The position numbers and the translations under genes were made by a program. Under the pieces are notes generated by a model, which saw nothing but the letters and a program-made list of their open reading frames with translations, was not told where the DNA came from and made no database searches. A stretch of 64,000 bases of DNA from an uncultured Dehalococcoidia bacterium (GTDB lineage Bacteria; Chloroflexota; Dehalococcoidia; Lucifugimonadales; Lucifugimonadaceae), in NCBI GenBank assembly GCA_958295935.1, contig OY282385.1, positions 1,961,545-2,025,544 on the forward strand, given 5' to 3'. Below are positions 2,962 through 59,636 of the stretch, piece after piece (positions within the stretch are counted from its first letter, which is position 1; each line of letters starts with the position of its first letter).

Positions 2962-4566
2962 TTACGCCGTTTCGACCATTCCCGGATCGGAGTCCGGGGC
3001 AAGTTTGCGCTGTTCCTCCTCTGCCCGCCTGATCCGCTGAGCGGCCTGATACGTGGAAGGATGGGCCGGTATCTCGAAGGTTCTGTCGTTAAGCAGTTCC
3101 TCTATGGTTCGGATCTGTATCTTGGGATAGTCCCGTTGCCACACTTCAGAGCGGTAGAAGCCGGCGCTGAGGGCCTCGGTTCGCATTTCGCGAGTAGGTT
3201 CCTCCAACGTGATGAAGAGGCCGAGCGCGGCTTTCTCGCGGTCGACGGCGCCCTTCAAATCCCTGATGAGGGGCGATGATACCCTGTCGCTCTTGACCTG
3301 TACGAGGCCCTTCCGACGCGGGCCGTCTATGAAGTGAATGACGCCGTCGATGCTCCTGTCGGCGCCGCGCTTGCGCTGCTCTCGCGGTAAAGCCTCCAGC
3401 AGAGACATTGCCCAGAACTGGAACTGGCAGCGGTCCTGATCGGCCAAGGCGCGGGCGCTACCGACGTCCACCGGCTCGCCGATGACTTGGTAGTCCTTTC
3501 CGGGAACGATGTCAAAGGCAGTCTTGAGCCGGTTCTTCACAAGGGCTACTGCCAGGTGGGTGACGTCGATGCCGATCCATCGTCGTCCGAGCTTCTCCGC
3601 AGCTGCCACGGCCGTACCGCAGCCACAGAAAGGATCCAATACCACGTCGTCATCGCTGGATGACGCCCGGATGATCCGTTCCAGAAGGGCCTGCGGCTTC
3701 TGTGTCGGGTATCCCAAACGTTCCTTCCCGATATGCATGGCATCCGGAATGTCTGACCAGGTGTCTCCGAGGAGAACATCCTCAACGACCCTCCCCGCGC
3801 TCTCTCTGAGAAAGTACTTGATTCGAATTGAGCCGGTTCTGGTCTGATGGACTCGACCCTCCGCATCAAGCCGTCTGATAGAGGCCTCCGTGTAGTCGCC
3901 TCTCGGGGCCGTCTTGAACCACCTGCCTTCATCATCCTGTCGCAGCCCCGCCTTTCGGGCCTCTTCGAACGTCAGCAGCCGCTCTAGATACTGTCTCCTG
4001 AAGGCGTGCTGGCCCGCCTCCTTCGAGTAGAACAACAGGACGTCGTGGTTGCGCGGGAATTGGTGTGCAATCGCCTTTGCGCCCCTGCCTCCGTAGTGCC
4101 ACACCAGCTCGTTCCGAAAGTTCGAGGCGCCGAACAAAGCATCCATCAGAAGCTTCAGGTAGTGACTCGCGGTGGGGTCGCAGTGCAAGTAGACGCTGCC
4201 GGCGGGTTTCATTACGCGGCGTAGTTCCACGAGGCGCGGGGTCATCATCACGAGGTAGGCCATCATGGCGTTGCTGCCTATGAACTGGCGGAAGGCGGAG
4301 ATCATGTCTTTGACGGCGGCGGGCGTCTCCGGGTTCGTGATGATCTCTTTTTCTAAGGTGCGCTCCGCTTCCTGCGTCCACTTCCAGGTATCGGTGAACG
4401 CCCTGATCTGGGCAGGAGACTCTTCACCCGATTGCTCCTCGAACAGAACGTTGTATGAAGCGTTTGAGTTGAACGGAGGGTCGAGGTAGACGAGGTCTAC
4501 CGACTCGTCGGGGACGTGCTCCCGGAGTATGGTTAGGTTGTCACCGTAGTAGAGTGCATTGTGCAT
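2962..4566 (-). CDS. Beta-class DNA methyltransferase (N6-adenine or N4-cytosine) with a C-terminal Mrr-like PD-(D/E)xK nuclease domain, 534 aa.
   Basis: Motif IV (VYLDPPFNSN) lies N-terminal and motif I (VLDPFCGCGTAVAAAEKLGRRWIGID) lies C-terminal of it. The C-terminal roughly 170 aa carry RSIDGVIHF...GLVQVKSD...ALGLFITLEEPT...KIQIRTIEELL, which resembles Mrr_cat (DGxIDG / QxK / KGxFITT). Confidence 0.75.
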   Translation of the reverse strand: MHNALYYGDNLTILREHVPDESVDLVYLDPPFNSNASYNVLFEEQSGEESPAQIRAFTDTWKWTQEAERTLEKEIITNPETPAAVKDMISAFRQFIGSNAMMAYLVMMTPRLVELRRVMKPAGSVYLHCDPTASHYLKLLMDALFGASNFRNELVWHYGGRGAKAIAHQFPRNHDVLLFYSKEAGQHAFRRQYLERLLTFEEARKAGLRQDDEGRWFKTAPRGDYTEASIRRLDAEGRVHQTRTGSIRIKYFLRESAGRVVEDVLLGDTWSDIPDAMHIGKERLGYPTQKPQALLERIIRASSSDDDVVLDPFCGCGTAVAAAEKLGRRWIGIDVTHLAVALVKNRLKTAFDIVPGKDYQVIGEPVDVGSARALADQDRCQFQFWAMSLLEALPREQRKRGADRSIDGVIHFIDGPRRKGLVQVKSDRVSSPLIRDLKGAVDREKAALGLFITLEEPTREMRTEALSAGFYRSEVWQRDYPKIQIRTIEELLNDRTFEIPAHPSTYQAAQRIRRAEEEQRKLAPDSDPGMVETA

Positions 4567-8043: not shown

Positions 8044-8382
8044 GGCCGGAACCTCGCGCTGTGTTATAGAAACCCGGATGACGCCTGTGGGGATTCGGTG
8101 ATTGGCCCCTTGGCAAGAAGATTCTAGCGCCGGTAATCACATCTCAGTCAGGGAGGGCGCTTTCGAGACGGTGTACGACAAATCTCTTCCCTCTCTACGC
8201 GGGAAAGATAAGGTGGGGCCTGCCGCCGCGAGAGCGGGGGCTGAGAGTGAACCAGGCAGTGCGAGGCCGCGCTTCGGACAGTTGTGCGAAACCTCTGATG
8301 GAGAGAAGCGCTTTAGATGCATCCTGAACGACTGAGCGGGGCCGCGTTTTCCAACAGGCTCGCCGACGTGGGAGATGCGCGG

Positions 8383-9696
8383 TTGTCCAGGAAAAACGCA
8401 TACTTCTTGAGCGGTCTGGCCATGGCGGTGGTGGCCGTCGCTGTGGCTATGGGGTGTTCGTCCGAGCAGTCCGGAAGTCAGGACAGGCCGGTTCAGGCCG
8501 TCCGGACCATCGGCCAGGCTGAAACTCCCGTCCCATCCCCTGAACAGTCTGTACAAGCGACTTCGCCCCCGTTGTCGTCCGCGACTCCATCCTCAAAATC
8601 GGATCCAACGCCCAGGCCATCGGTCCTGCCCACCCAGCCGTCGTCCGCAACTCCATCCCTGAAACCGGATCCAACGGCCAGGTCATCGGCCCTACTCACC
8701 CCGTCGCCATCTGCGACTCCATCCCCGAAACCGGATCCAACGCCCGAGCGGGAGTACGAGATCGTCACACTTCTACCGTTCGACGCCATACCAGCCATAT
8801 CCAATCCGATCCTCATGTCCGCAGAAGAGGCGGAGGAGTTATACGATTCTGACGAATTGGTGCTTGGAGTAGAGATCGATGATGACGCCCGGGCCTATTC
8901 GGTGCCGCTGCTCAGCAGGCACGAAATAGTAAACGACGTCGTTGGGGGCAAGCCGGTAGCGGTCACTTGGTGACCCCTATGCTTCACTGGAGTCGGGTAC
9001 TCCAGAGAACTGAACGGCCAGACCCTCGACTTTGGCGTTTCGGGCAAGCTCATCATGAACGCGCTCGTGATGTTCGACCGCGAAACCGGCACACTGTGGA
9101 GCCATTTTCTATCAAAGGCGATTTCAGGACCGCTCAAGGGGACGCGGCTCGAAAACATACCCGTTACGCTTACGACCTGGAGCAAATGGCTAGAGGAATA
9201 TCCGAACACCCTGGCCTTGGAGAAAGGCTTTTCAGGATCTAGCGACCCTTATACACGTTACTATCGGAGCAGCGATCCGGGGGTTATTGGCGAACTGCAC
9301 GAGGACGAGCGGCTGGAACCCAAGCAACTTGTGCTTGGCGTAGGGTTCGGAGACGGACCAAAGGCCTATTCCCACAAAGCTCTTGAACGGCAACGCGTGG
9401 TGAATGACGTTGTGACCGGGAAACCCGCGCTCGTCTATTTCGATCCGCAGACCGGCACGGCGCTCGCCTTCCACCGCGTCGTAGACGGACGGGAGCTGTC
9501 CTTCGATCTGCTGGAAGATGAGGATGGGACCTACGTCGTGGACGACCAGACGGGAACCAGATGGGCGCCATATACCGGTCAGGCATTACAAGGAGAACTG
9601 GCAGGTAGGGCAATGCAAAGGGTGCACTCGGTGAACGTGTTCTGGTTTGCCTGGACCGACTTCTTTCCTGAAACCGAGATCTACGCCGCACCCTGA
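8383..9696 (+). CDS. DUF3179-family lipoprotein interrupted by an in-frame TGA at 8971-8973. It is either a selenoprotein (Sec) candidate or a pseudogene.
   Basis: The signal/lipobox is ...AVVAVAVAMGCSS, followed by Pro/Ser/Thr tandem repeats. The DUF3179 signature then reads ...HEIVNDVVGGKPVAVTW[TGA]PLCFTGVGYSRELNGQTLDFGVSGKLIMNALVMFDRETGTLWSHF. Track ORFs 8317-8973 and 9055-9696 are the same frame split by the TGA, which falls exactly at the Cys of the family CPLC motif. The TTG 8383 start follows GGGAGA; ATG 8317 is the alternative. Confidence 0.55.
8572..8755 (+). repeat. About 63-nt imperfect tandem repeats (about 3 copies) encoding the Pro/Ser/Thr linker of the DUF3179 protein.
   Basis: The repeat units are tcgtccgcgactccatcctcaaaatcggatccaacgcccaggcc... 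/ tcgtccgcaactccatccctgaaaccggatccaacggccaggtc... / tcgccatctgcgactccatccccgaaaccggatccaacgcccgag. Confidence 0.5.
8987..9005 (+). other. Hairpin 13 nt downstream of the in-frame TGA (CTGGAGT-cgggu-ACTCCAG), a possible bacterial SECIS element.
   Basis: There is a perfect 7-bp inverted repeat with a 5-nt G/U-containing loop. Its position, 13 nt after the UGA, is compatible with bacterial SECIS geometry. Confidence 0.3.
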
Positions 9697-18004: not shown

Positions 18005-19267
18005 TTAGAAAACGGTCTCCGGCCAATCTATCATCTCGACCGTAACCTCATCGCCGGCTGACATCATGGCAACGTCGTCCGGGCAGATTGCCAACCCATT
18101 GGCTGCAACCATCGAGGTCAACACTCCGGAACTCTGGTTCCCGGTCGTGCGAGCCCGGTAGGAGCCGTTACGGGCCTTGTAGACCGTCACGCGGGCGTAA
18201 ACTCGCCTGCCGTCGTGATTGTAGATGTCGTCATCCAGCGTTGCACGCACACTCGGCCTCGAAACCGGGGGCAAACCAAGCATGACGCGCAAAGCCGGCC
18301 GCCCGAACTGCTCGAACGCGACCATGGCGCTCACCGGATTTCCGGGCAGGCCAAGATGGGGCACGCTACGGCCGTCCGGACCTCGGAGACTGCCAAACGC
18401 AAGCGGTTTTGCAGGTCTCATCCGTACCGACCACAGGGCTATGGATCCCCGCTCCGACAGTACGTCCTTGACCACGTCGTAGTCGCCCTTGGAAACACCG
18501 GCAGAGGTCACGATCATGTCGTATCTCATGCCGGCGTCCAGAGCCTCGTTGAGAGATTTGACAGTGTCCCTGGCGATGCCTATCACGCGCGGTTCGCCGC
18601 CGAACCGCTCCACCAGCGCAGCCACGCTGTAGGCATTGGAGTTATAGATCTTGCCTGCCTGGTGAGGCTCGCCGGGAGAGAGCAGTTCATCCCCGGTGGA
18701 AATGATCGCCACCACTGGCCGCCTCACCGCGCACACGCTCTTCCGCCCGATGGACGCCGCCACGCCGATCTCAGCCGGACGCATCAGCGAACCGCGCTTG
18801 AGCACGACCTCCCCGGCCCTGGCGTCCTCGCCGGCAGGCCGGATGTTGTCTCCAGGCTCGGCGGGGGTCCTGATCCCGATAACGTCCAGAGCCGCCCCGG
18901 CGCGACGACGCTCCATTTCGTCCGTATCCTCAAACGGGACCACCGCGTCCGCGCCCGCAGGCGCCGGCGCGCCGGTCATGATGCGGATTGCGCCGCCCGG
19001 AGGGACCGGGCGATCTGGCAACTCGCCCGCCGCAACGGAGCCTACTACCGGGAGATCCCTCGGACGTTCGGACGAAGCCGATGACGTGTCCGCCGAACGG
19101 ACGGCGTAACCGTCCATTGCGGAATTCGCCAACGGGGGTATGTCGAATGTTGCTACCAGATCCTCGTCAAGTACCCGGCCGCACGCTTCCAGCAGGGGAG
19201 TATCGACCGCATCCAGCCGGGAGAAATGCGCAAGAATTCTCTCCAGGGCATCCTCGACGCTCAGCAT
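18005..19267 (-). CDS. moeA: Molybdopterin molybdotransferase MoeA.
   Basis: MLSVEDALERILAHF...LANSAMDGYAVR...GDNIRP is the MoeA/gephyrin E-domain. The ATG at 19265-19267 is preferred over the upstream track start at 19357. Confidence 0.8.
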   Translation of the reverse strand: MLSVEDALERILAHFSRLDAVDTPLLEACGRVLDEDLVATFDIPPLANSAMDGYAVRSADTSSASSERPRDLPVVGSVAAGELPDRPVPPGGAIRIMTGAPAPAGADAVVPFEDTDEMERRRAGAALDVIGIRTPAEPGDNIRPAGEDARAGEVVLKRGSLMRPAEIGVAASIGRKSVCAVRRPVVAIISTGDELLSPGEPHQAGKIYNSNAYSVAALVERFGGEPRVIGIARDTVKSLNEALDAGMRYDMIVTSAGVSKGDYDVVKDVLSERGSIALWSVRMRPAKPLAFGSLRGPDGRSVPHLGLPGNPVSAMVAFEQFGRPALRVMLGLPPVSRPSVRATLDDDIYNHDGRRVYARVTVYKARNGSYRARTTGNQSSGVLTSMVAANGLAICPDDVAMMSAGDEVTVEMIDWPETVF

Positions 19268-19364
19268 GTCCGCATCATAGTGATGCCGGTGCGGGCGAGG
19301 CTCAAGCTCGCGGCGGTGCGAATGATCGGCCATGGCGGGTCTGCTATATCTCTCCATACGGGCC

Positions 19365-29055: not shown

Positions 29056-29829
29056 TCAGCGACAGCGCTCGGCAAACGTCACCCTTCCTCTGTTCTGGGT
29101 GGCATCCCAGGCCTTCGCCTCGGCCTCCGCCTCACTTGAGTAAGGCCCGTGCCACCAGTTATCAGGAAGAGGATCTGGCTTACGGTTTTCGTAGTGGTAG
29201 CAGGGTCCCTTGTGAATCTTGGAGTTTGAACCGTCGGTGTAGACGTAGAATTTCTCTCGCGATGGGCTTGGCGCGGATGGAACTGGTGGATCCTGTTGCG
29301 GGGGCCGGGAGGCAGGCTCGGTAAACCGCGTCAGCGGACGCGTAGTCGTATCCCGTAGCGGGGGCGGGGAAGAGAGCCGGTCCCTGATTCTTTCTACCGC
29401 CTGCTTACTGTCGGATTCGTTGATGCGTCCGAGCAGGTCCGCGATGACGGTCACGCGGCTCCTGACATCCTCTATGTCCAGGTCGCTCTGTGAAGGATGC
29501 GCCGCTTTGTTCCGCGCATCGCGGATCATCCACAACATGTTCTTGACTATTTCGTCGTTCCAGAACTCCTGGCTGAAAATGTCGTTCCAGTACCCGTCTA
29601 CCAGTTTCGGAAAGTCGTTTATGTCGATAGATTCCTCAGCGCTGCCAGTGCGGCGGAGGTCATCTGAGAAATACTTGCCCCGACCACCTAGTTTGCCCTT
29701 TATAGCCTCCTCGATGTTCTTGCCTTTTACACGATTCAGGCATCGGACGATGAAAGGACGCATAGCGTAGCGGAATATGTCAAGCGCATCGTGGAGCGCT
29801 TGTTTGTTTGGATAAAGAGATTCTGTCAT
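29056..29829 (-). CDS. Swt1-type HEPN domain, Pro-rich linker and Ada-like Zn-ribbon module; paralogue 2 of 3.
   Basis: The ATG at 29827-29829 follows AGGAGCCAAAAAA. The HEPN motif is ...MIRDARNKAAHPSQSDLDIEDVRSRVTVIADLLGRI (Rx4H). The C-terminus is ...KFYVYTDGSNSKIHKGPCYHYENRKPDPLPDNWWHGPYSSEAEA...RVTFAERCR. The track ORF extends upstream to 29997 only because the frame stays open. Confidence 0.55.
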   Translation of the reverse strand: MTESLYPNKQALHDALDIFRYAMRPFIVRCLNRVKGKNIEEAIKGKLGGRGKYFSDDLRRTGSAEESIDINDFPKLVDGYWNDIFSQEFWNDEIVKNMLWMIRDARNKAAHPSQSDLDIEDVRSRVTVIADLLGRINESDSKQAVERIRDRLSSPPPLRDTTTRPLTRFTEPASRPPQQDPPVPSAPSPSREKFYVYTDGSNSKIHKGPCYHYENRKPDPLPDNWWHGPYSSEAEAEAKAWDATQNRGRVTFAERCR

Positions 29830-29977
29830 TTTTTTGGCTCCTACCTGATTGAGAGACTCGAATGGCGTTTGGACTGAATAAATTTTGGTCAGGGCAGTGC
29901 CGGGGCAAGGGGGAGTGGGACGTGGAGAACTGCTGAGCGCGCCCCGGTCGATTGTGGTCTGTTCCGCGCCCATTACG

Positions 29978-30682
29978 TCAGCGACAGCACCCGGCAAACA
30001 CCACCCTTCCTCTGTTCTGGGAGGCAGCCCGGGCCCCCGCCTCGCTTGAGTAAGGCCCGTGCCACCAGTTATCAGGAAGGGGGTTTGGCTTGCGGTTCTT
30101 GTAATAGCGGCAGGATGCCTTGTGAATCTTGGACATCCCGGTTGGTAGGTCGGTGTAGACGTGGAATCCCTCGCGCGACGTGCTTGGCGCGGGTGAAACT
30201 GGCGGATCCTGTCGCGGGGAAGAAAGCCGGTCCCTGATTCTTTCTACCGCCTGCTTACTGTCGGGTTCTTTGATGCGTCCGAGCAGGTTGGCGATGTCGG
30301 TCACGCGGCTCCTGACATCCTCTCTATCCAGGTCTTTCTGTGGAGGATGCGCCGCTTCGTTCCGCGCATCGACGATCGTCCGCAACGTGTTCTTGACCTT
30401 TCTCTCGCCCCTGAACTCCTGGCGGAAAATGTCGGTCCAGTACTCGTTTATAAGATCTGGAAAGTAGTTTATGTCGATAGATTCCTCGACGCTGCCAGTG
30501 CGGTAGAGGTTATTGGAGAATTCCCTGCTCCGAGCACCTTTAAGTTTTTCCTTTATAGCCTCCTCGGCGCTCTTGCCTTCGACACGATTCAGGCATCGGA
30601 CGATGAAGCGACGCATATCGTAGCGGAATATGTCAAACGCATCGTTGAGCGCTTGCTTGTTTGGGTAATAGTATTCTGTCAT
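29978..30682 (-). CDS. Swt1-type HEPN domain, Pro-rich linker and Ada-like Zn-ribbon module; paralogue 3 of 3.
   Basis: The ATG at 30680-30682 follows an identical duplicated 5' leader/RBS. It reads MTEYYYPNKQALNDAFDIFRYDMRRFIVRCLNRV...IVDARNEAAHPPQKDLDREDVRSRVTDIANLLGRI...KIHKASCRYYKNRKPNPLPDNWWHGPYSSEAGARAASQNRGRVVFAGCCR. Confidence 0.55.
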   Translation of the reverse strand: MTEYYYPNKQALNDAFDIFRYDMRRFIVRCLNRVEGKSAEEAIKEKLKGARSREFSNNLYRTGSVEESIDINYFPDLINEYWTDIFRQEFRGERKVKNTLRTIVDARNEAAHPPQKDLDREDVRSRVTDIANLLGRIKEPDSKQAVERIRDRLSSPRQDPPVSPAPSTSREGFHVYTDLPTGMSKIHKASCRYYKNRKPNPLPDNWWHGPYSSEAGARAASQNRGRVVFAGCCR

Positions 30683-30785
30683 TTTTTTGGCTCCTACCTG
30701 ATTGAGAGACTCGAATGGCGTTTGGACTGAATAAATTTTGGTCGGGGGTAGCACCGGGACACAGGGGGTGAATGGATGGCTGTTT

Positions 30786-33215
30786 TCACTGGAGCACGGT
30801 GGCTACCGCGGGGGAGGATAATACGTCTCCGCCCGTTTTGTAGCTCCATAGGAGCTTGCCTGAGGATTGGTCCAGCGCGTAGAGGTGATCGTCGTCCGAT
30901 CCTATGAACACGGTGCCGCGGTTCACCGCTGCGCTGGATCTCACGTCCCCCCGCGTCCGGTAGCGCCATAGCAGTTCACCTGTGACGGCGTCCAGCGCGT
31001 AGAGGTGGTCGTCGGTCGATCCGGCGTACACGACACCGTCGATCACCGACGGCCGATTCACGCTATCGCCTGTCTCGTATCGCCAACTCAGATCGCTCGT
31101 GCCGGCGTCCAGCGCGTAGAGGTGGTCGTCGCCAGATCCGGCGTACACGACTCCGTCGGCCACTGCGGGCGACGAGAAGCTGACGTAGTAGTCGCTGCTA
31201 CGGTATCTCCATAACGTGTCTCCAGTCGCCGCGTCTAGTGTGGACAGGTACCTGTCAGCCCTGTTTGCGCGCGCGGCGTACACGACTCCGTCGGCCACTG
31301 CGGGCGACGAGGAGAAGGAGCCGAGGAAGATGCCGCCGGGGCGGTATCGCCACAACAGGTCTCCGGTCGCCGCGTCAAGCGAGTAGAGGTAATCGTCGTT
31401 CGATACTATGAACACGACTCCGTCGGCCACCGCGGGTGAGGAGTGGACGTTGTCGCCGGTCTCGTATCGCCATAGCAGGTCTCCGGTCGCCGCATTGAGC
31501 GCGTAGAGATGGTCATCGGCTGATCCGGCGTACACGACTCCGTCGGCCAGCGCGGGCGAGGAGTGGACGTCGCCGCCGGTGCGGTATCGCCATAGCAGGT
31601 CTCCGGTCGCCGCGTCGAGCGCGTAGAGGTTGTTGTCGTACGACCCTACGTAGATGACGCCGTTGGCCGCTGCGGGCGAGGAATGCACCTCGCCGCCGGT
31701 CCGGTAACTCCAGCTCAGCTCGCCCGTTTCCGCGTCCAGCGCGTACAGGTACTTGTCGCCTGAGCCCACGTAAACGAGATCGCGCTCTGTGGGTACATGC
31801 GGCGTAGCAGTCGCAGTTGGAGTGAAAGTCGGGGTGGGTGAGGCAGTTGGCGTAGGCGTAGGAGTGGAAGTCGGCGTTGCGGTGGGTGGCGCGGTGGTCG
31901 GGGTCGGCGCGGCTGTTGGCGCAGGCGTTGGAATCGAAGTCGGGATTGGATTGGGCGGCGCGTTGGTCGCGGCCGTTGGCGCTGGAACGGCGGTTGGCAC
32001 TGGGCGCGTGGGAGTTGGAACCGAAGTCGGTGTTTGAGTGGGCGGCGCGTTGATCGCGCCCGTTGGTGTTGGAACAGTCGTTGGCGCTGCGCGCGCGGGA
32101 GTTGGAACCGAAGTCGGTGTTTGAGTGGGCGGCGCGTTGATCGCGCCCGTTGGTGTTGGAACAGTCGTTGGCGCTGCGCGCGCGGGAGTTGGAACCGAAG
32201 TCGGTGTTTGAGTGGACGGAGCGTTGGTCGCGGCTGTTGGGAGTGGAACAGTCGTCGGGGAGGGTGTCGGGGTATGGGCCGGCGTCGAGGGTATGACTAC
32301 GGGAGCGGGCGTGTTCGTGGGGATCTGCGCTGCGGCCTGATTTTGGGGTTCACTAATCGCGAGTCTGTCGTTTAGCCAGATCCCGAGGAAGATGCCGCCG
32401 GCCAGGAGAAGGAGGGCAAGTACCGCGAAGGCGGTGACTGCCGGGCTTCTGAAGCCTCGCCAGCCTCCCTTTCGTTGGGATTCCGCGCTGCGGTCTGCAC
32501 CGGATAGAGCGTCGAGTTCCCTTTTTCTCTGTTCCGCGCGCAGACGGGCCTGGTGACGCTGATCCTCGATGGAAGTGCGTTCGGCATCGGTCAGGCCCCA
32601 ATTGATGAAGAAGTTGTCGAGCCGGAAGCCGTAGCCCGACAGCGTGGCTGCGAGTTCGACCCTGAGCGAGTCGTATATCGAGCGCAGCAGGGCCTCGTTG
32701 CCGCGCAGTTCCGCGGCGGTGTGCTTGCTGAGTTCGTGTGCGACGACCTTGGCCAGCAGTTCGTCCTTGAGGTATTCGGCGACGTCCGCCACGCCTATGG
32801 CATCCCGTCCGCGCATGAAGGCGGGCAGCCGGTCGGCGTCCTCCAGGGTGACGGCGAGCCTGAGATTCACCTGCGCGGCTATGAGCTGTCCGTCGGCAGT
32901 GAGAGCGGGGATGCCCTGCGTATCCAGTTCGGACGGGCTGTCAGGGTCCTCGAGCCAGAAGGAGACGGTGAACGGAGAGGTGTCGGCCTGGAGCGCGCGC
33001 GTGCTGGGGCCGCTGCCGAGGAGCGCGCGCAGGAAGTCGCCGAGGCTTCTGGTGCTGCGCTTGCCCTCGGTGAAGATCTCGACGATCTTGCCGTCGCGGA
33101 TGACTACGACCAGCTCATGGGGTTCGGCGATGACGTTGCGCCCGAACCCGCGTAGATCCTTGCGGCCCAGGTAGGCCGCAACGGTATCTACTCCGAATCT
33201 CCGCCAGGAGGTCAT
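30786..33215 (-). CDS. Membrane protein with an N-terminal SPFH (band-7)-like domain, coiled coil, one TM helix, Pro/Thr repeat linker and a C-terminal PQQ-type (BamB-like) beta-propeller.
   Basis: The SPFH-like region reads ...ELRGNEALLRSIYDSLRVELAATLSGYGFRLDNFFINWGLTDAERTSIEDQRHQARLRAEQRKRE. The TM helix is AVTAFAVLALLLLAGGIFLGIWL. About 8 repeats follow of the type YLYALDAATGDLLWRYRTGGDVHSSPA. The ATG at 33213-33215 overlaps the upstream stop (TGAaATG); the track start 33236 is the alternative. Confidence 0.6.
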   Translation of the reverse strand: MTSWRRFGVDTVAAYLGRKDLRGFGRNVIAEPHELVVVIRDGKIVEIFTEGKRSTRSLGDFLRALLGSGPSTRALQADTSPFTVSFWLEDPDSPSELDTQGIPALTADGQLIAAQVNLRLAVTLEDADRLPAFMRGRDAIGVADVAEYLKDELLAKVVAHELSKHTAAELRGNEALLRSIYDSLRVELAATLSGYGFRLDNFFINWGLTDAERTSIEDQRHQARLRAEQRKRELDALSGADRSAESQRKGGWRGFRSPAVTAFAVLALLLLAGGIFLGIWLNDRLAISEPQNQAAAQIPTNTPAPVVIPSTPAHTPTPSPTTVPLPTAATNAPSTQTPTSVPTPARAAPTTVPTPTGAINAPPTQTPTSVPTPARAAPTTVPTPTGAINAPPTQTPTSVPTPTRPVPTAVPAPTAATNAPPNPIPTSIPTPAPTAAPTPTTAPPTATPTSTPTPTPTASPTPTFTPTATATPHVPTERDLVYVGSGDKYLYALDAETGELSWSYRTGGEVHSSPAAANGVIYVGSYDNNLYALDAATGDLLWRYRTGGDVHSSPALADGVVYAGSADDHLYALNAATGDLLWRYETGDNVHSSPAVADGVVFIVSNDDYLYSLDAATGDLLWRYRPGGIFLGSFSSSPAVADGVVYAARANRADRYLSTLDAATGDTLWRYRSSDYYVSFSSPAVADGVVYAGSGDDHLYALDAGTSDLSWRYETGDSVNRPSVIDGVVYAGSTDDHLYALDAVTGELLWRYRTRGDVRSSAAVNRGTVFIGSDDDHLYALDQSSGKLLWSYKTGGDVLSSPAVATVLQ
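32007..32270 (-). repeat. Perfect 90-bp tandem repeat (2 copies plus a degenerate third) within the Pro/Thr linker coding region of the SPFH-propeller gene.
   Basis: Positions 32007-32096 are identical to 32097-32186 (ggagttggaaccgaagtcggtgtttgagtgggcggcgcgttgatcgcgcccgttggtgttggaacagtcgttggcgctgcgcgcgcg). Each copy encodes PTQTPTSVPTPARAAPTTVPTPTGAINAP. Confidence 0.6.
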
Positions 33216-33216
33216 T

Positions 33217-33759
33217 TCAGCCTTGGGCCTTCTCACGCGCTGCCCGCTCGATGTCTCCCAGCGCGTTGTCGTAACCGGCTCCCCGGTAGAACTGCGTTTC
33301 CGAAGGGTCCCTGTCGAATATGCTGATGACCGTTTCGAGCTTGTTGTCCGACCCCTTGACCTTGACGGCTACCTCTTCCATCTGGCTTTCCAGCGCGGCC
33401 GCATCCATCTCATTGATGAGCTTCCAGATGCCGCGCTTCTGGAGATCCTTCTTCATGTTGATGATGTTGATGGTCTCGTCCAGAACCGATATCTGCGTAA
33501 TCACGCGCTGGATGTTGTCCTCCGCCCTGTCCTTGCGCTTTCGGGCTTCGCTCATCCTGTAAGCGGCGACCTGCCGCTCTGCGGAGTTCTTGCCCGGCTC
33601 CGAGGCTATGTCCAGGCGGCGGTCGTACTCCTCCTGCGCACGCCTGATGGTTAACAGCAGCCTGTCCTGCCTGACCTCCTGTCGCGTGCGCTCCTTGCGC
33701 AGGTCGTCGATCTTCAGGTCCTCGAGCTTCTTTGCCGTGCCAAATCCAAATAGTGCCAT
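33217..33759 (-). CDS. ESCRT-III / PspA (IM30) superfamily-like coiled-coil protein, 180 aa.
   Basis: It starts MALFGFGTAKKLEDLKIDDLRKERTRQEVRQ (ESCRT-III proteins begin M-x-LFG-(K/R)) and is predicted all-helical, with ...NIQRVITQISVLDETINIINMKKDLQKRG...MDAAALESQMEEV. It is translationally coupled to both neighbours. The family assignment is tentative. Confidence 0.45.
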   Translation of the reverse strand: MALFGFGTAKKLEDLKIDDLRKERTRQEVRQDRLLLTIRRAQEEYDRRLDIASEPGKNSAERQVAAYRMSEARKRKDRAEDNIQRVITQISVLDETINIINMKKDLQKRGIWKLINEMDAAALESQMEEVAVKVKGSDNKLETVISIFDRDPSETQFYRGAGYDNALGDIERAAREKAQG

Positions 33760-33760
33760 G

Positions 33761-34234
33761 TCATCTCCTTCTTCTTCTGATTACCTTGACGCTCTCGCCG
33801 TCATGGTCTTTCACGTTGGAAACGCTGATCTTCTTCTCCTGTCGGAGCTGCTCGACGACTTCATCGACGACGTTCTCCGGGAACTGCCCGACGAACTGAT
33901 CTATGACGAACACCTTGCGGCTGTCGTCGAGCAGCGCTGTCTCAATCTCGCGGCGGCAGGCGTCCAGCAGTTTTTGTCGCCTCTGGTACTCGGTGTCCTG
34001 CGGCTCCGCGGGCGGGACGAGGGGCTCTCTGCCGCGGGACACGTCCGGGCCGTGGTGCTGCCTCTCCAGCCATGCGTCTATCTCCGAGCGGCGGAAGCGC
34101 CACGTGGACCCGAGCTTGAACACGGGGATCTTCCCGGACTGCGCCCAGTCGTAGATGGTGCGCTCGGACATGTTGAGGTACCTGGCCACTTCCGGTATGG
34201 ACATGAGCGCCGGGGCGCTGTCGCTGCCGTTCAT
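33761..34234 (-). CDS. Excisionase-family (MerR-like HTH_17) DNA-binding protein with a C-terminal extension; the first gene of the operon.
   Basis: It contains MSIPEVARYLNMSERTIYDWAQSGKIPVFKLGSTWRFRRSEIDAWLE. GGAG lies 5 nt upstream of ATG 34234. Confidence 0.6.
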   Translation of the reverse strand: MNGSDSAPALMSIPEVARYLNMSERTIYDWAQSGKIPVFKLGSTWRFRRSEIDAWLERQHHGPDVSRGREPLVPPAEPQDTEYQRRQKLLDACRREIETALLDDSRKVFVIDQFVGQFPENVVDEVVEQLRQEKKISVSNVKDHDGESVKVIRRRRR

Positions 34235-36195: not shown

Positions 36196-37707
36196 GTGTA
36201 CTACAAGCCAGACATAGAAACGTTCAGGTCTCTTGCCAGAGAGGCGAATCTGATACCCGTTTACCAGGAGATCACCGCTGACCTGGAGACCCCGGTTTCG
36301 GCATACCTGAAGACCGCCCGGGGGCCCTATTCCTGGTTGCTCGAATCGGTCGAGGGCGGCGAGAACGTGGCTCGATACAGTTTCATGGGCACTGAGCCAT
36401 CGGAAGTCCTCATATCCGGGCCGGGCGAGCGAGATGGAGAAGTCGACCCTCTCGAACTGCTTCAGTCGCGCACGTCCGGGGTGAAGTACGCCGCGGTGCC
36501 GGGCCTCCCTTATTTTCACGGCGGCGCAGTTGGCTACGTGGGCTATGAGGCGATCAGATATTTTGAGCCCAAGGTGCCGCCGCTGCCCATGCCGGGCGTC
36601 GGCGTACCCGAGGCGGTTTTCATGCTGACCGACTCGTTGCTCATATTCGACCACGTTCGCCACACCATCGCGGTGGTGGGACACGCCCGTGTAGACGGAG
36701 ACCCGGACGCCGCCTACCAGAGAGCCACCCAGCGCATCCAGGACATGGTCGGACGTCTGGAGGCGCCACTGCCGGCACAGGCATACAGGCTCGCCCCGGC
36801 AAGAACCGGCGTGACCTCCGATGCCGGCCTGGATTACTCGCACAACCAAGATGCCAACGCGGGCCTGCCGACCAGTTCCAATATGAGCCGCGCAGACTAT
36901 GAGACGATGATCGAGGTCGCCCGCCGGGGGATCTACGACGGCGAGTTGATCCAGGTGGTGTTATCTCAACGGCTCTCACGCCCTACCGGCGCGGCCCCGT
37001 TCGACGTCTACAGGTCGCTCAGGGGAGTGAACCCGTCCCCATATATGTTCTATCTGGACCTTGGAGGGTTTCAGGTCGCAGGCGCCTCGCCGGAGTTGCT
37101 GGTGCAGATGATAGACGGCGACGTAGCCGTTCATCCCATAGCAGGCACGAGACCCAGAGGGGACACCCCGCAAGAGGATGAAGCGCTGGCCCGCGAACTG
37201 GCCCAAGACGAGAAAGAACGGGCGGAACACGTGATGCTGCTGGACCTGGGCCGCAACGACGTGGGCAGGGTTTCGGTTCCCGGAACAGTGAAAGTCACCC
37301 AGCAACTCGACCTGGAACGCTACTCACACGTGATGCACCTCGTTTCGCACGTTACAGGCAAGCTGCGGGATGAGTACGATGCCTACGACGCCCTGCGAGC
37401 AGGTTTTCCGGCAGGCACGGTTTCCGGAGCGCCCAAGGTGCGCGCCATGGAGATGATCGCCGAGTTGGAGCGTGACAAGCGCGGCCTATACTCCGGCGCA
37501 GTCGGATACTTCAGCTATACCGGCAACATGGACACCGCTATCTGCATCCGATCCATCGTGCTCAAGGACGGCGTGGCGCACATGCAAGCAGGCGGCGGCG
37601 TTGTCGCCGATTCCACGCCCAGCGGAGAATACCAGGAGTCACTGATCAAGATCGGCGCCCTGATGCGCGCCATCGACCACGCCGAGGACGTCGCCGGTGC
37701 CTCTTGA
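36196..37707 (+). CDS. trpE: Anthranilate synthase component I.
   Basis: A GTG start follows AAGGGA. It carries TrpE chorismate-binding motifs (...LESVEGGE...VLSQRLS...GAVGYFSYTGNMDTAICIRS). Confidence 0.85.
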   Translation: MYYKPDIETFRSLAREANLIPVYQEITADLETPVSAYLKTARGPYSWLLESVEGGENVARYSFMGTEPSEVLISGPGERDGEVDPLELLQSRTSGVKYAAVPGLPYFHGGAVGYVGYEAIRYFEPKVPPLPMPGVGVPEAVFMLTDSLLIFDHVRHTIAVVGHARVDGDPDAAYQRATQRIQDMVGRLEAPLPAQAYRLAPARTGVTSDAGLDYSHNQDANAGLPTSSNMSRADYETMIEVARRGIYDGELIQVVLSQRLSRPTGAAPFDVYRSLRGVNPSPYMFYLDLGGFQVAGASPELLVQMIDGDVAVHPIAGTRPRGDTPQEDEALARELAQDEKERAEHVMLLDLGRNDVGRVSVPGTVKVTQQLDLERYSHVMHLVSHVTGKLRDEYDAYDALRAGFPAGTVSGAPKVRAMEMIAELERDKRGLYSGAVGYFSYTGNMDTAICIRSIVLKDGVAHMQAGGGVVADSTPSGEYQESLIKIGALMRAIDHAEDVAGAS

Positions 37708-37890
37708 CTTCATCGCAAGGTTGGGTCTGCCGGAATTCAGGCGGCTTGACCTCCGATTCCCACTGGCGCCCCTGGCCGCTATCGACGCGGCGGAGAGAAT
37801 GGCAGTCCTTCGCGGCCAGCGGGCTGCACGAAGCGCCATGGCGGTCGCGACAGGCTGAGCCGCCGCAGCACGGAGAATCAGGATGCCCCC

Positions 37891-38454
37891 ATGGTCTTGC
37901 TGATAGACAACTACGATAGCTTCACCTTCAACCTCTACCAGTACCTTTGCGAACTGGGCGCCGAGGTCGAGGTGATCAGGAACGACGAAGCCACCGCAGA
38001 CGAGATCGAGGCGATGGACCCTGATCGCCTGGTCATCTCTCCCGGCCCGTCCCGCCCCGAAAGCGCCGGTGTGTCGGTGGAAGCCGTCCGACGGTTTGCA
38101 GGAAGGAAACCGCTGCTGGGGGTTTGCCTGGGGCACCAGTGCATTGGAGCAGCCTTTGGCGCAACGATACAGGGCGCGGGTGAAATCAAGCACGGAAAGA
38201 CCTCCATGATCGAGCACGACGGCAAAGGTCTGTTCAAAGGTGTCCCCAATCCATTCGAGGCTGTTCGCTACCACTCCCTCGCCATTCGACCGGGCACCCT
38301 GCCCGACGACTTCGAGGTGACGGCGCGTTCAACGTCCGGGGTGATCATGGGGGTCAGGCATCGCAGAGCGCCCGTAGAAGGCGTACAGTTCCACCCGGAG
38401 TCCATACTCACCGCGCCCGGCAAGCAGATACTCCGGAACTTTCTGGACATGTAG
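37891..38454 (+). CDS. trpG: Anthranilate synthase component II (glutamine amidotransferase).
   Basis: MVLLIDNYDSFTFNL...GVCLGHQ...HPES is the class I GATase triad. Confidence 0.85.
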   Translation: MVLLIDNYDSFTFNLYQYLCELGAEVEVIRNDEATADEIEAMDPDRLVISPGPSRPESAGVSVEAVRRFAGRKPLLGVCLGHQCIGAAFGATIQGAGEIKHGKTSMIEHDGKGLFKGVPNPFEAVRYHSLAIRPGTLPDDFEVTARSTSGVIMGVRHRRAPVEGVQFHPESILTAPGKQILRNFLDM

Positions 38455-38507
38455 GCTCACCCCCGCCGCCAGGCATAGCAGGCCGCACGGTGAGCAGGAA
38501 ACAAGCG

Positions 38508-39554
38508 ATGAACATCCAGCAGGGAATACAAGCGGTTGCGGAGCGCGAGGATCTGAGCGTCGAAGACGCGGCGAGCGTGATGCGGCAGATCATGGCCGCC
38601 GAGGCCACGCCGGCCCAGTTCGGGGCATTTGTCACCGCTCTACGCATGAAGGGAGAAACGCCCGAGGAAATAGCCGGCATGGCCATGGCCATGCGCGAGG
38701 TTTCCCTGCACGTCGATACGGACATCTCAGCCGTGGACACCTGCGGCACCGGCGGAGACTCCATGGGTTGGTTCAACGTATCTACGGCCGCGGCTTTCGT
38801 AGTAGCGGGCGCCGGAGTACCGGTGGCCAAGCACGGCAACCGAGCCATGTCAGGGGCCACGGGCAGCGCAGACGCGCTGGACGCGCTCGGGGTAAAGATC
38901 GACCTGGGCCCCGACGGCGCAAGACGATGCATCGAGCTGACCGGGATCTGCTTTATGTTCGCCCAGGAATTCCACCCGGCCATGAAGTTCGCAGGGCCGC
39001 TCCGTCCACAATTGGGCATCCGAACAGTCTTCAACCTGCTCGGCCCTCTTACCAATCCGGCCGGGACGAAGCGCCAGGTTATAGGCGTGTATGACGGCTC
39101 AGCGGCGGAAAAGATCGCCAAGGCGTTGTCCATTCTGGGAGCCGAGTACACCTTGGTGGTACATGCAGACTCCGGCGCAGACGAGATAGACGTCGAGGGA
39201 CACACTCTTGTGTACCAAGTAACTGCGGATGCGATGAAGCGTCGGCGCACTCGGCCTGCGGACTTTGGGTTGCCGGAGGGCAGCCGCTCTCACCTGGCCG
39301 TCCGCAACGCGGCGGCCAGCGCGCAGACCATCCGCAACGTGCTCGATTCCAAAGGCGGTGGACACAATGCCCCGCCCGGCCCCGCCCGGTCGGCCAGGAA
39401 CGTCGTGGTAATGAACGCCGCGGCAGCGCTCCTGGCCGCGGGCAAGGCGGACAGCTTTCAGGACGGCGCTGCGTTGGCTATGGAATCGATCGATTCAGGC
39501 GCGGCACGCGAGCGGCTCGAAAGGCTGATCACAGTGAGCAACGAGGCACAGTGA
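38508..39554 (+). CDS. trpD: Anthranilate phosphoribosyltransferase.
   Basis: It contains ...KGETPEEIAG...DTCGTGGD...KHGNRA. ATG 38508 (AGGAA upstream) is preferred over GTG 38490. Confidence 0.85.
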   Translation: MNIQQGIQAVAEREDLSVEDAASVMRQIMAAEATPAQFGAFVTALRMKGETPEEIAGMAMAMREVSLHVDTDISAVDTCGTGGDSMGWFNVSTAAAFVVAGAGVPVAKHGNRAMSGATGSADALDALGVKIDLGPDGARRCIELTGICFMFAQEFHPAMKFAGPLRPQLGIRTVFNLLGPLTNPAGTKRQVIGVYDGSAAEKIAKALSILGAEYTLVVHADSGADEIDVEGHTLVYQVTADAMKRRRTRPADFGLPEGSRSHLAVRNAAASAQTIRNVLDSKGGGHNAPPGPARSARNVVVMNAAAALLAAGKADSFQDGAALAMESIDSGAARERLERLITVSNEAQ

Positions 39555-40378
39555 CGAGTGCCAGGTCAACCGCCAGTGCCGGCGTTCTCGACCGGATAGT
39601 CGAGGCGAAACGGCTCCGCGTCGAGCAAGCTCGGAGAGACGTTCCAACCGCCAGACTCCGGGAACTGGCGGAACAGTCTCCCCCCCCTGTCTCACTGGCC
39701 AATGCCCTCGCAAACCGGCCTGGCATAGCCATGATCGCCGAGATGAAGAGGAGGGCTCCTTCCGCAGGTGAGCTTGACCTCGACATGGACCCCGCCGAGC
39801 GCGCGGGCGCATACTGCGCGGCGGGCGCTGCCGCTATATCCGTACTCACCGAGTACGATCACTTTATGGGGACTGTGGAAGACCTGACAAGGGCTAGGAG
39901 CGTGGCCGCCCGGCATGGTGTGTCGGTACTGGAGAAGGACTTTGTGTTCGACGAGTACCAGATTTGGCAGGCGCGAGCCGCAGGCGCAGACGCCATCCTG
40001 CTAATCGTAGCCATCCTGGATCCGTCGCAGTACAAAGACCTGTTCGAGCTCAGCCGCAGTCTCGGTATGGACGCGCTCGTCGAATCGTTCGACGAACAGG
40101 ACCTGGAGGTCGCGTTGTCCGCGGACCCAGAGGTCGTCGGCATCAACAACCGCAATCTCAGAACGCTCGAAACCTCTCTGGACGTGTTCGAGCGATTGGC
40201 GCCCCTCATAGGGCTTGGTAGAATCGCGGTTGCGGAAAGCGGCATGAAGAACGCCGCAGACGTGGAGCGCATGGGACGGGCCGGGGCAAAGGCAATACTC
40301 GTAGGCGAGTCTCTCATGCGCGCTCGCGGCAACGCATCTACTCTTATACAGGCTATGTCACAGGTCGACGTTCAATGA
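39551..40378 (+). CDS. trpC: Indole-3-glycerol phosphate synthase.
   Basis: It contains ...AEMKRRAPSAG...VLTE...INNRNL. The start overlaps the trpD stop (GTGA). Confidence 0.8.
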   Translation: MTSARSTASAGVLDRIVEAKRLRVEQARRDVPTARLRELAEQSPPPVSLANALANRPGIAMIAEMKRRAPSAGELDLDMDPAERAGAYCAAGAAAISVLTEYDHFMGTVEDLTRARSVAARHGVSVLEKDFVFDEYQIWQARAAGADAILLIVAILDPSQYKDLFELSRSLGMDALVESFDEQDLEVALSADPEVVGINNRNLRTLETSLDVFERLAPLIGLGRIAVAESGMKNAADVERMGRAGAKAILVGESLMRARGNASTLIQAMSQVDVQ

Positions 40379-41043
40379 GCGGGTACAAGCCGAAAATCAA
40401 GATCTGCGGCATCCGGGATGCCGACATAGCGCTCGATGCGGCCAAAGCCGGCGTGGATCTTCTGGGGCTGGTCTTTGTGGAAGGCGTGAGGAGGCAGTTG
40501 AAAGTCATGGAAGGCGCGGCCGTGGTCGCGCGCTACCGACTGCGGGCGGACGTACGAGGGTATCGAACAAGGTTCGTCGGGCTTTTTCGGAACCAGCCTA
40601 GAGATTGGGTGAACGAAGTTTCCAAGCGAGCCGCGCTGGACTACGTGCAGTTATGCGGAGAAGAAGACGAGGACTACGTTCGCGGCATCTGGCGGCCCGT
40701 GCTGCGGCAGATCAGAGTACGCAGCGAGATGACCGCAGCTCACCTGGAAGAAGCGGCCTCGCCCCATCTGAACGCCGGGCGCATGGTGTTGCTGGACCGT
40801 TTCGACGAGGATACCCCCGGCGGATCGGGTAAGACGTTCGACTGGTCCAAGGCCGAGGGCGTTGCGGACAAGGACGGCGTGCTGCTGGCAGGGGGGCTAT
40901 CGCCCGACAACGTAGAGGATGCGATCCAGAGACTCCGGCCCTGGGGCGTTGACGTATCCAGCGGAGTCGAGAGCGGCGGAGTCAAGGACCGGGAGAAGAT
41001 CAGAGCGTTTGTCGCTGCTGCGCGCGGCCAACGAGTCGCGTGA
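40375..41043 (+). CDS. trpF: Phosphoribosylanthranilate isomerase.
   Basis: KIKICGI...LLGLVF...LAGGLSPDNV is the TrpF TIM-barrel signature. The start overlaps the trpC stop. Confidence 0.8.
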   Translation: MSGYKPKIKICGIRDADIALDAAKAGVDLLGLVFVEGVRRQLKVMEGAAVVARYRLRADVRGYRTRFVGLFRNQPRDWVNEVSKRAALDYVQLCGEEDEDYVRGIWRPVLRQIRVRSEMTAAHLEEAASPHLNAGRMVLLDRFDEDTPGGSGKTFDWSKAEGVADKDGVLLAGGLSPDNVEDAIQRLRPWGVDVSSGVESGGVKDREKIRAFVAAARGQRVA

Positions 41044-50480: not shown

Positions 50481-50761
50481 GTTTGGCTCCGGCTGATCTT
50501 TTTGATGGAATAGCGGCATGATAAACCGACGACGTGCGGCCGTGGCAGAGTTGCACGTCATTATTCCACCCCCGCCATCCCCATCTCCGGCCAGGAACTT
50601 CAGGGCGGTCTGCTAAAAAACGCGGACAGGGCAGTATCGACAGATACCCCTCTCTTGCACCACTTGACGCAGCGCGGTTTTCGATCAAGGATCGATCTGA
50701 CGTGTCAACTGATAATCCTGATCCGCTTCCTTCTTCTCTCACTACGACATGGCGGTCTGCA

Positions 50762-54408: not shown

Positions 54409-54541
54409 ACTCAGCGATACAGGCGATTAGAGAGAGCCGCGGCCGTCGTCAGGCCGCGCTGCGGCAAGGGTACCCGGCCTTTGGCCGCTGCGAGAAAACG
54501 GATCGATCCGGCGTCGAGGCAAGCGCGGCAGGCCCGCAGGA

Positions 54542-54985: not shown

Positions 54986-55009
54986 GTCTTGCGGTTTGCG
55001 AATGCCTTA

Positions 55010-55870: not shown

Positions 55871-55913
55871 GTTCCTGCCGTCCTGTTCCGCTTCTCTGCC
55901 ATTCGTATATCGC

Positions 55914-57854: not shown

Positions 57855-57922
57855 TTTCTATACCCCGTTTCCCGGTTGGTCTTCATCTCTGAAAGGTTGA
57901 ACGCCCGCAAGGATACCCCAGC

Positions 57923-59395: not shown

Positions 59396-59636
59396 CAATG
59401 ATGGCTGGGGGGAATCTGTCCGGAAAAGCGTCAGGCGCGAGGCTCGTTCACGGGGTTGAAACGGCTGGCCCGGCGCACCGGAAACCGTTTGTGCACTTTT
59501 TAACAAGCCCGTTGAGCATAGCATCGAGCGCTATGCCGCGCAACGGCCGCGCCGTACTCAACGGACAAAGAATCCCGGAGACTTCACGCACCGGCGGAGT
59601 CGGAAAACCAATGCAGGTCGGAAGCAGGGCAGAAGT

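Follow-up and report, generated by a model that had tools for sequence, protein, structure and literature searches.

The interval 8317–9696 on the forward strand of the 64-kb stretch of Dehalococcoidia DNA analysed here (the window) is, with a probability of roughly 0.93, a single gene whose product is a DUF3179 selenoprotein, predicted to be lipid-anchored outside the cytoplasm, in which UGA codon 219 is read as selenocysteine by means of a hairpin at 8987–9005. The reading frame opens with ATG at 8317, has TGA as codon 219 (8971–8973) and runs on, over 459 codons including that for Sec219, to a TGA stop at 9694–9696; all of the features described below for this gene lie on the same strand. 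Within 8962–8982 the codons ACT TGG TGA CCC CTA TGC give the translation GKPVAVTW, stop, PLCFTGVGYSRELNGQTLDFGVSGKL. The UGA supplies the first residue of a U-P-L-C motif, where Cys-containing homologues have the leading Cys of CPLC. The TGC at 8980–8982 encodes Cys222, the presumed partner in this UxxC arrangement (i.e. its resolving or co-ligand Cys), which is invariant in one of our alignments (A1) and almost invariant in another (A3). At this site the more distant homologues have CxxC, as seen in 85 of the 93 full-length protein matches among the best 120 database proteins. The sequence, its translation and these homologues all agree with the first-pass annotation, in which the in-frame UGA replaces the leading CPLC Cys to give a U-x-x-C configuration.

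With Cys written at the stop, the 459-residue product matches Pfam DUF3179 (PF11376) over residues 156–453 and profile positions 2–292 of 292 (E 2e-89), scoring 300.2 bits against a gathering cutoff of 27 and covering the whole domain. Because this match runs end to end across the TGA, the stop sits within an intact domain. The domain (8782–9675) is internally duplicated, with an N-terminal half (residues 173–298; 8833–9210) that carries U-P-L-C and a C-terminal half (residues 330–453; 9304–9675) that has no such motif. Ahead of it, 8317–8457 encodes a predicted lipoprotein signal peptide, recognised by eye: its n-region is basic (RLSRK), hydrophobic residues follow, and it ends in AMG-C, which resembles a lipobox and has its Cys47 at 8455–8457. 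Also judged by eye, this A-M-G-C47 lipobox is imperfect against [LVI][ASTVI][GAS]C, and orthologues have clearer ones at the same place (LSGC, LWGC and LSC); the protein is presumably exported and lipidated. Between signal peptide and domain lies a Pro/Thr/Ser-rich linker (8574–8745), visible in the translation and encoded by a 66-bp tandem repeat of 2.6 copies with 83% matches (Tandem Repeats Finder). NCBIfam holds no model specific to the family and gave just a spurious weak GltJ match on the Pro-rich linker, and consensus scans around the gene found no promoter or terminator. The neighbours of Sec-DUF3179 genes differ between loci, with recF, SIR2 and an aminotransferase gene divergently upstream and acetyltransferase, phosphoribosyltransferase, HAD or Usp genes downstream, and they offer no operon-partner lead to function.

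The putative bacterial SECIS element occupies 8983–9009. Its 7-bp upper stem pairs CUGGAGU (8987–8993) with ACUCCAG (8999–9005) around the apical loop CGGGU (8994–8998), and the minimum free energy (MFE) fold adds a weaker lower stem, 8984–8985 with 9007–9008; a third lower pair, 8983/9009, is merely possible and formed part of the structure used in the covariation test. The perfect 7-bp hairpin had been reported by the first-pass annotation at 8987–9005, 13 nt past the UGA, and is exactly as described there; its apical loop begins 20 nt past the UGA. Published bSECIS criteria (PMC13188914, Fig. 2A, summarising Zhang & Gladyshev, 2005) call for a loop of 3–9 nt, an upper stem of 4–16 bp, a G as the first or second loop base with G or U next to it on the 3' side, a UGA-to-loop distance of 16–37 nt and an MFE of −7.5 kcal/mol or lower. 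The hairpin falls within all of these limits, having a 5-nt loop, 7 bp, GG at loop positions 2 and 3, a distance of 20 nt and an MFE of −10.5 kcal/mol. Like the prototype element of E. coli fdhF it would be a stem-loop inside the coding sequence just 3' of the UGA, but there is no sequence similarity between the two and no bulged U was identified in the window hairpin. Thermodynamics alone is weak evidence: the 27-nt hairpin taken by itself has a z-score of −2.4, with 4 of 200 shuffles equally good, and the 66-nt stretch around the UGA and hairpin is not unusually stable (z +0.68).

The comparative data are decisive. Across 78 distinct sequences the hairpin is held in register, pairing being kept in 92% of cells, and four of its pairs show double changes (GC 43 and UA 29; GC 54 and CG 23; CG 40, AU 30 and UA 6; AU 67 and GC 11). 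The covariation score of 0.41 compares with at most 0.14 in slid controls and was reached by none of 500 shuffles; RNAalifold independently predicts the identical seven pairs. At pair 24–40, in which the third position of a Thr/Ser codon (G/U) faces the first position of an Arg codon (C/A), the change is purely synonymous (111 of 121 sequences). All seven pairs are present in 99 of the 121 distinct TGA forms (mean 6.74), whereas recoding these peptides with synonymous codons yields a mean of 4.35 pairs and reaches seven in 1.6% of cases, and Cys forms, a small control (n=6), average 3.5 pairs. Judged by these alignments, the RNA structure is under selection beyond the constraint imposed by the protein.

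These properties suggest how the gene would be expressed. UGA219 would be bypassed as a stop during translation, the mRNA hairpin within the coding sequence acting as a SECIS element that draws to the ribosome a SelB loaded with GTP and Sec-tRNA(Sec). Selenocysteine would then be put in at UGA219, and the product would bear U-P-L-C in the first of two Rieske-like half-domains. We infer that the inserted residue is Sec. An alternative that we consider improbable is that the UGA is recoded without Sec, the hairpin either helping a near-cognate tRNA, for Trp or Cys, to read through the stop or programming efficient termination to yield a functional 218-aa N-terminal fragment. Its appeal lies partly in the searches for the Sec machinery, which found no selA, selB, selD or tRNA-Sec in the window (ARAGORN, Rfam at the gathering threshold, and Pfam for about 50 ORFs), no selA, selB or tRNA-Sec in the flanks of 168 related loci and, using ARAGORN, no tRNA-Sec in L001–L088, and partly in one metagenome relative (L155), in which TGG replaces the TGA although most of the hairpin is kept. 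Against it, the Cys found at this site in homologues makes a classic Sec/Cys pair, and the loop, spacing and energy of the hairpin match the SelB-type bSECIS model. Termination is not the main outcome, because the 240 codons downstream are conserved as protein.

Relatives also encode SelD. In four of them (L005, L013/L088, L015 and L019) selD shares a contig with the Sec-DUF3179 gene, at a distance of 2.2 kb in L005 (TIGR00476, 288 bits) and of about 7.5 kb in L088, the contig on which the orthologue L013 (74% identity) lies. At its GxG-U-xGK site the L088 selD contains a further in-frame TGA, and the SelD fragment P0259 begins just past that site. P0259 is on a contig of 2,750,180 bp, equal in length to the one that carries the window's own C-terminal ORF as deposited (P0001), and it may on the strength of this length and of a common source belong to the same genome. 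SelD also supplies the selenouridine and Se-cofactor pathways, and SelD alone is no proof of Sec decoding. The UGA at the canonical Sec position of the L088 SelD would, however, presuppose a working Sec-insertion system. Dehalococcoidia are moreover documented as rich in selenoproteins, with MAGs reported to hold 46–49. We infer that SelA, SelB and tRNA-Sec exist in the source genome. The window was also scanned for further selenoprotein genes, in the form of two ORFs that share a frame and are separated by a TGA; this gave two plausible pairs (45371–46117 with 46127–46969, and 43820–43050 with 43016–42081), both rejected as unrelated neighbouring genes on their Pfam matches.

Among 150 related loci (149 codons scored), drawn from other Chloroflexota genomes and from metagenomes, 142 have TGA at the position of codon 219. 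The loci on genomes and contigs (L001–L087, of which L008–L087 are GTDB species representatives) have 84 TGA against 2 TGT (84/86). The metagenome loci, retrieved with a Cys-form profile, have 58 TGA, 4 TGC and 1 TGG among the 63 scored. The few DNA homologues that lack TGA mostly have TGT or TGC. One carrier of the TGA, Ca. Lucifugimonas marina JH545 (L022; NZ_CP046146.1, orthologue at L022:3226), is in culture. UGA remains a normal stop in the source genome: TGA is the commonest ordinary stop among the 53 genes of the window (TGA 26, TAG 14, TAA 13), and therefore the genetic code is not reassigned. On either side of the TGA, comparison with six orthologues gives dN of about 0.12–0.21, dS of at least 1.3 and dN/dS of about 0.1.

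It is thus very hard to sustain the view, offered as an option by the first-pass annotation, that the locus is a nonsense pseudogene, or its variant in which a sequencing or assembly error has altered the codon, a Cys TGC/TGT having been mutated or misread to TGA. A single base does separate TGA from TGC/TGT, and public annotation does give two ORFs here. Yet the same codon is TGA in different species, assemblies and sequencing projects, purifying selection acts on both flanks, the Pfam match is unbroken and the covarying hairpin is tied specifically to the TGA forms. The first-pass annotation had also named a pattern that would speak against selenocysteine, namely homologues that are uniformly Cys with no SECIS. 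Aligning the homologues for UGA versus Cys, as it had proposed, revealed TGA in the great majority of related loci, with the hairpin in register and covarying, and Cys in the more distant homologues.

Gene callers divide the locus into 8317–8973 and 9055–9696. The C-terminal ORF is in the same frame as the first and begins mid-domain, and the earlier view that it could not be an independent gene is upheld by the single PF11376 domain that spans both pieces. It has been deposited separately as a 213-aa protein (P0001), and split calls recur in L001–L007. Of the best 120 database proteins, 27 (the closest) are C-terminal fragments of 212–229 aa that start 11–35 residues past the UGA site, a pattern that reads as the signature of gene callers halting at a conserved TGA. 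The proposal that these calls are right, and that a lipoprotein gene (8317–8973) and a gene for a cytoplasmic protein (9055–9696) share a frame by chance, is scarcely credible for all that the automatic annotation of P0001 and of L001–L007 favours it, since the pieces are contiguous within one Pfam domain and one predicted fold, the intervening 27 codons from the TGA to ATG 9055 (including PLC and FGVSGKL) are conserved and lie within the family's most conserved block, and the called C-terminal starts differ between orthologues.

The one-gene selenoprotein has a predicted fold, modelled for a Cys homologue with 50% identity to it, that consists of tandem Rieske-like half-domains; fold comparison of the same model recovers the Rieske beta-fold, and in the model the UxxC motif forms a tight turn linking two beta strands in the first half-domain. 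Known Rieske-fold domains (Rieske [2Fe-2S] proteins and the cluster-less NirD small subunit; for example 3c0d, 2qpz and 8hn2) have about 10% identity to DUF3179, which differs from them in its tandem duplication and in keeping the Cys/Sec in the first copy only. The cluster ligands C-x-H...C-x-x-H are absent from the alignments: conserved Cys/Sec is confined to U/C-P-L-C, the second box is F-G-V-S-G and there is no conserved His pair. Without the pair of His ligands and the second box with its Cys, the protein cannot bind a Rieske 2Fe-2S cluster, and the class of Rieske iron-sulfur proteins was rejected. A Pfam scan of the product gave no Rieske match, and a sequence search of the PDB with the family profile returned nothing. 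We also rejected a thioredoxin fold for the UxxC motif, as the fold searches yielded no Trx-fold matches and the motif lies in a turn of the Rieske-like sandwich, whereas thioredoxin-fold oxidoreductases have theirs at the N-terminus of helix 1.

Thioredoxin-fold UxxC/CxxU selenoproteins (such as DsbA-like, thiol:disulfide interchange and AhpD-like ones) have UxxC aligned with CxxC, as does DUF3179, and Dsb/TlpA proteins are extracytoplasmic, like the predicted location of DUF3179. By analogy, this suggests selenenylsulfide redox chemistry. On the modelled fold, we put at about even odds that the selenol and thiol work together outside the membrane, either as a redox-active selenenylsulfide or as a centre that binds soft metals, on a Rieske-type scaffold that has lost its 2Fe-2S ligands. 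More tentative, and in our estimate somewhat short of even, is the broader proposal that the UxxC on a tandem cluster-less Rieske scaffold, lipid-anchored and found in aerobic marine and soil Chloroflexota (SAR202-type Dehalococcoidia), would constitute a structurally new extracytoplasmic selenol centre (redox or soft-metal), unrelated to thioredoxin-fold or Mo/W/Ni-enzyme selenoproteins, with the Sec form the norm in the lineage.

The first-pass annotation had called the gene a candidate new selenoprotein. The selenoprotein half of that claim stands on the conserved TGA and the covarying hairpin; the novelty of the family does not, and the accompanying belief that DUF3179 is absent from published selenoprotein lists was mistaken. 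Two reviews from the Zhang group (PMC9312934, 2022; PMC13188914, 2026) tabulate DUF3179 (pfam11376) among the selenoproteins with the motif UxxC/T; they credit it to Zhang & Gladyshev (2007; PMC1976440) and give a representative accession only, with neither function nor structure. The 2007 study dealt with contigs of the Olavius symbiont (deltaproteobacterial), under names such as OS_HP1/2. The window gene shares with the reviewed selenoprotein its Pfam family, Sec position, Sec/Cys pairing with CxxC and a bacterial-type SECIS downstream. There is no essential difference between them, the window member having a Dehalococcoidia-type, apparently aerobic host and being split in public annotation. 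The SAR202 cultivation paper makes no mention of selenium. What appears to be new here is the predicted lipoprotein anchoring and, from the model, the tandem Rieske-like fold without cluster ligands.

The locus is therefore an ordinary, usually mis-annotated member of a known selenoprotein family. It carries little weight as a discovery, given that DUF3179 UxxC/T is already catalogued and that the selenoprotein richness of Dehalococcoidia is already known; its practical value lies in annotation. Because the closest relatives in public protein sets are nearly all deposited as two fragments, the window's own product included, domain statistics and pangenomes are distorted for Chloroflexota that are abundant in the ocean and soil. 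A by-product for specialists is a family that appears to keep only the Sec/Cys-x-x-Cys loop on a predicted exported lipoprotein. JH545 has this UGA and hairpin too, so that both the function of the protein and the insertion of Sec are directly testable in a cultured SAR202 strain.

The DUF3179 (PF11376) gene at 8317–9696 (+) carries an in-frame TGA at 8971–8973 (codon 219), in the sequence GTC ACT TGG TGA CCC CTA TGC TTC ACT GGA GTC GGG TAC TCC AGA (8962–9006). Translated from the ATG at 8317, the frame reads ...KPVAVTW-*-PLCFTGVGYSR... and is open as far as the TGA at 9694–9696. When the stop is replaced by Cys, residues 156–453 of the resulting 459-aa protein match the Pfam DUF3179 profile (profile 2–292 of 292, 300 bits, E 2e-89); the profile is covered end to end, which places the TGA within one domain that is intact in all other respects. 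As the first-pass annotation had proposed, the UGA occupies the first Cys of the CPLC motif, and more distant full-length relatives have CxxC at this site in 85 of 93 cases. Re-reading of the sequence and translation bore out every one of that annotation's coordinates and sequence statements. We consider this to be a selenoprotein gene, with a probability of about 0.93.

The UGA is followed, from 13 nt downstream, by the perfect 7-bp hairpin originally described (CUGGAGU, 8987–8993; loop CGGGU, 8994–8998; ACUCCAG, 8999–9005), and a short lower stem is also paired by ViennaRNA. The published bacterial SECIS criteria (PMC13188914, Fig. 2A) are a loop of 3–9 nt with a G within its first two positions and then G/U, a stem of 4–16 bp, a UGA–loop distance of 16–37 nt and an MFE of −7.5 kcal/mol or lower; the window hairpin falls within all four (loop 5 nt, CGGGU; stem 7 bp; distance 20 nt; MFE −10.5 kcal/mol). 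Stability alone is not persuasive, because the 66-nt stretch around the site has a z of +0.68. The hairpin is in register across 78 distinct TGA-form sequences, for which RNAalifold returns exactly the window hairpin's seven pairs and a ten-pair structure has 92% of cells paired. Double changes are found at four pairs (GC43/UA29, GC54/CG23, CG40/AU30/UA6 and AU67/GC11), and the covariation score is 0.41; shifting the 3′ arm by 1–3 columns yields no more than 0.14, and none of 500 column shuffles reaches 0.41. Since the hairpin lies in coding sequence, protein constraint was checked as a source of the pairing. Of the covarying pairs, one links a Thr/Ser codon at its third position with an Arg codon at its first (ACU with AGA; ACG or UCG with CGN). 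Neither change alters the amino acid, and the pair is matched in 111 of 121 sequences. Peptides recoded at random with synonymous codons, weighted by window codon usage, form a mean of 4.35 pairs and reach seven in 1.6% of cases, against an observed mean of 6.74 with all seven in 99 of 121. A small control of Cys-form sequences (n = 6) averages 3.5 pairs. The hairpin, initially called SECIS-like, is thus upheld by the published criteria and by covariation in the TGA forms.

The nearest protein relatives (55–71% identity; 27 of the top 120 matches) are all 212–229 aa long, match the query over its C-terminal 70% alone and start 11–35 residues past the UGA site. Such fragments, alongside distant CxxC proteins, are what gene callers make of a gene interrupted by a conserved TGA. 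In the DNA of seven fragment-bearing contigs, TGA is present at the aligned codon in all seven and the N-terminal DUF3179 portion lies in an upstream ORF. Scanning GTDB with one genome per species gave 80 loci, which with few exceptions carry a Dehalococcoidia or Chloroflexota label; combined with the first seven, they show 84 TGA and 2 TGT at the site. Even with a Cys-form profile as seed, a metagenome scan yielded 58 TGA, 4 TGC and 1 TGG. Homologues are not uniformly Cys forms lacking a SECIS, the outcome named beforehand as counting against Sec; among these DNA loci TGA forms predominate, and they keep the hairpin.

Compared with six orthologues, dN is 0.12–0.14 upstream of the TGA and 0.19–0.21 downstream, with dS at least 1.3; the low downstream dN at this dS indicates that the 240 codons past the 'stop' are maintained as protein. 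Together with the conservation of the TGA in relatives, this leads us to reject both a sequencing error and the nonsense pseudogene that the first-pass annotation had retained as an option. Two independent genes are likewise rejected, and the ORF at 9055–9696 is, as first argued, not a gene of its own. Genome-wide UGA reassignment is excluded by the ordinary stops of 53 window genes, of which TGA is the most frequent (TGA 26, TAG 14, TAA 13).

Several Dehalococcoidia genomes hold two Sec-DUF3179 paralogues (locus pairs L010+L025, L008+L029, L011+L031, L012+L032 and L046+L048, and two copies within L105), ~57–59% and 73–74% identical to the window protein, each with its own TGA and in-register hairpin. 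Variants include a metagenome relative with TGG (Trp) at the Sec site and a nearly intact hairpin (L155:1783), a copy in which an indel destroys PLC (L093:1128) and a small 'AVTF-U-PLCYTG' group (L101/L123/L153) with the hairpin displaced by one position and an 8-nt loop. The same TGA and hairpin occur in a DUF3179 gene of Ca. Lucifugimonas marina JH545 (L022:3226, NZ_CP046146.1), the only cultured SAR202 strain; the paper describing it makes no mention of selenium.

Within the 64-kb window no tRNA-Sec was found, nor were selA, selB or selD among its ~50 annotated ORFs. Indirectly, the evidence for such machinery is good. In one fragment-bearing contig (L005), the Sec-DUF3179 gene has selD (TIGR00476, 288 bits) 2.2 kb downstream, and SelD proteins were found on contigs equal in length to those of loci L019, L015 and L013. 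The last of these is a 74%-identical orthologue that shares the window's recF synteny, and on its contig (L088) ~7.5 kb separates selD from the split DUF3179 gene. In this selD (L088:9878), too, a TGA interrupts the frame, at the canonical GxG-U-xGK active-site position (...LASCAG-U-AGKFSQ...), and a hairpin follows; to make a SelD that contains Sec, a cell must already be able to insert Sec. A SelD fragment of 71% identity (P0259) begins just past that Sec site; it and the deposited 213-aa C-terminal ORF of the window gene (P0001) are each recorded on a contig of 2,750,180 bp (NCBI, ENA), circumstantial evidence for SelD in the window genome. SelD homologues of the clade are mostly deposited N-terminally truncated (293–322 aa), which suggests that mis-annotation of the same kind is widespread there. 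Dehalococcoidia MAGs with 46–49 selenoproteins each are reported in the BSepDB paper (PMC13326102).

The N-terminus has a basic n-region and a hydrophobic stretch, then A-M-G-C47; the orthologues' lipoboxes are clearer (LSGC and similar). From these sequence features we infer that the protein is probably exported and lipid-anchored. A Pro/Thr/Ser-rich linker between signal peptide and DUF3179 is encoded by a 66-bp tandem repeat (8574–8745; 2.6 copies, 83% matches), and linker length varies widely among orthologues, which total ~375–499 aa. DUF3179 is an internal tandem duplication (residues 173–298 against 330–453, 32% identity, E 1e-22), encoded at 8833–9210 and 9304–9675, with the U/C-P-L-C loop in the first half only. 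Each half is predicted to adopt a Rieske-like fold; with the Rieske ligands CxH...CxxH missing, the predicted scaffold would lack a cluster, as does the best fold match, NirD (3c0d). A thioredoxin fold is not involved. Gene neighbourhoods give no clue to function; our working hypothesis is that the protein may provide, outside the membrane, either a selenenylsulfide redox centre or a soft-metal site.

Elsewhere in the window, caa3-type oxidase, trp and molybdenum-cofactor gene sets lie at 53527–59524 (−), 36196–41043 (+), 18005–19357 (−) and 60339–62538 (+). An aerobic lifestyle is indicated by the caa3-type cytochrome c oxidase cluster (CtaG, COX1 with subunit IV, COX2 with cytochrome c). The trp genes form a trpE-G-D-C-F operon, and moeA, moaA and moaC are in keeping with Mo-enzymes, for example formate dehydrogenase, encoded outside this region of the genome. 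Two adjacent paralogues with HEPN_Swt1 domain matches (29056–29997 and 29978–30754, −) adjoin a gene for an 816-aa protein that combines an SPFH domain with a PQQ-type beta-propeller (30786–33236, −), with an HTH_17 gene (33761–34234, −) in the same region; 29056–34234 could represent a defence or mobile island. The gene at 2962–4566 (−) joins a DNA methylase (N6_N4_Mtase) to a restriction endonuclease domain of the Mrr/NA-iREase type, and a second N6_N4_Mtase is encoded at 50534–51790 (+).

The UGA, the hairpin and the selenoprotein reading of the first-pass annotation thus stand, and its pseudogene option and its claim of novelty do not. Two reviews of prokaryotic selenoproteomes (PMC9312934, PMC13188914) tabulate a 'DUF3179 domain-containing protein' (pfam11376/PF11376, UxxC/T; representatives MBW1804167.1 and MDJ0986319.1), so family, Sec position and motif were already published. 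The rows cite the study of Olavius symbionts by Zhang and Gladyshev, 2007 (PMC1976440), which labels its new families OS_HP1-3 and similar. Apparently unstated in the literature covered are how strongly the SECIS pairs covary, the predominance of Sec over Cys forms in Chloroflexota relatives, the predicted lipoprotein architecture and the modelled tandem Rieske-like fold, which are modest additions and no new kind of system. The Sec finding is real and clean, yet already known: the window gene is another member of a known selenoprotein family, split wrongly in public annotation.
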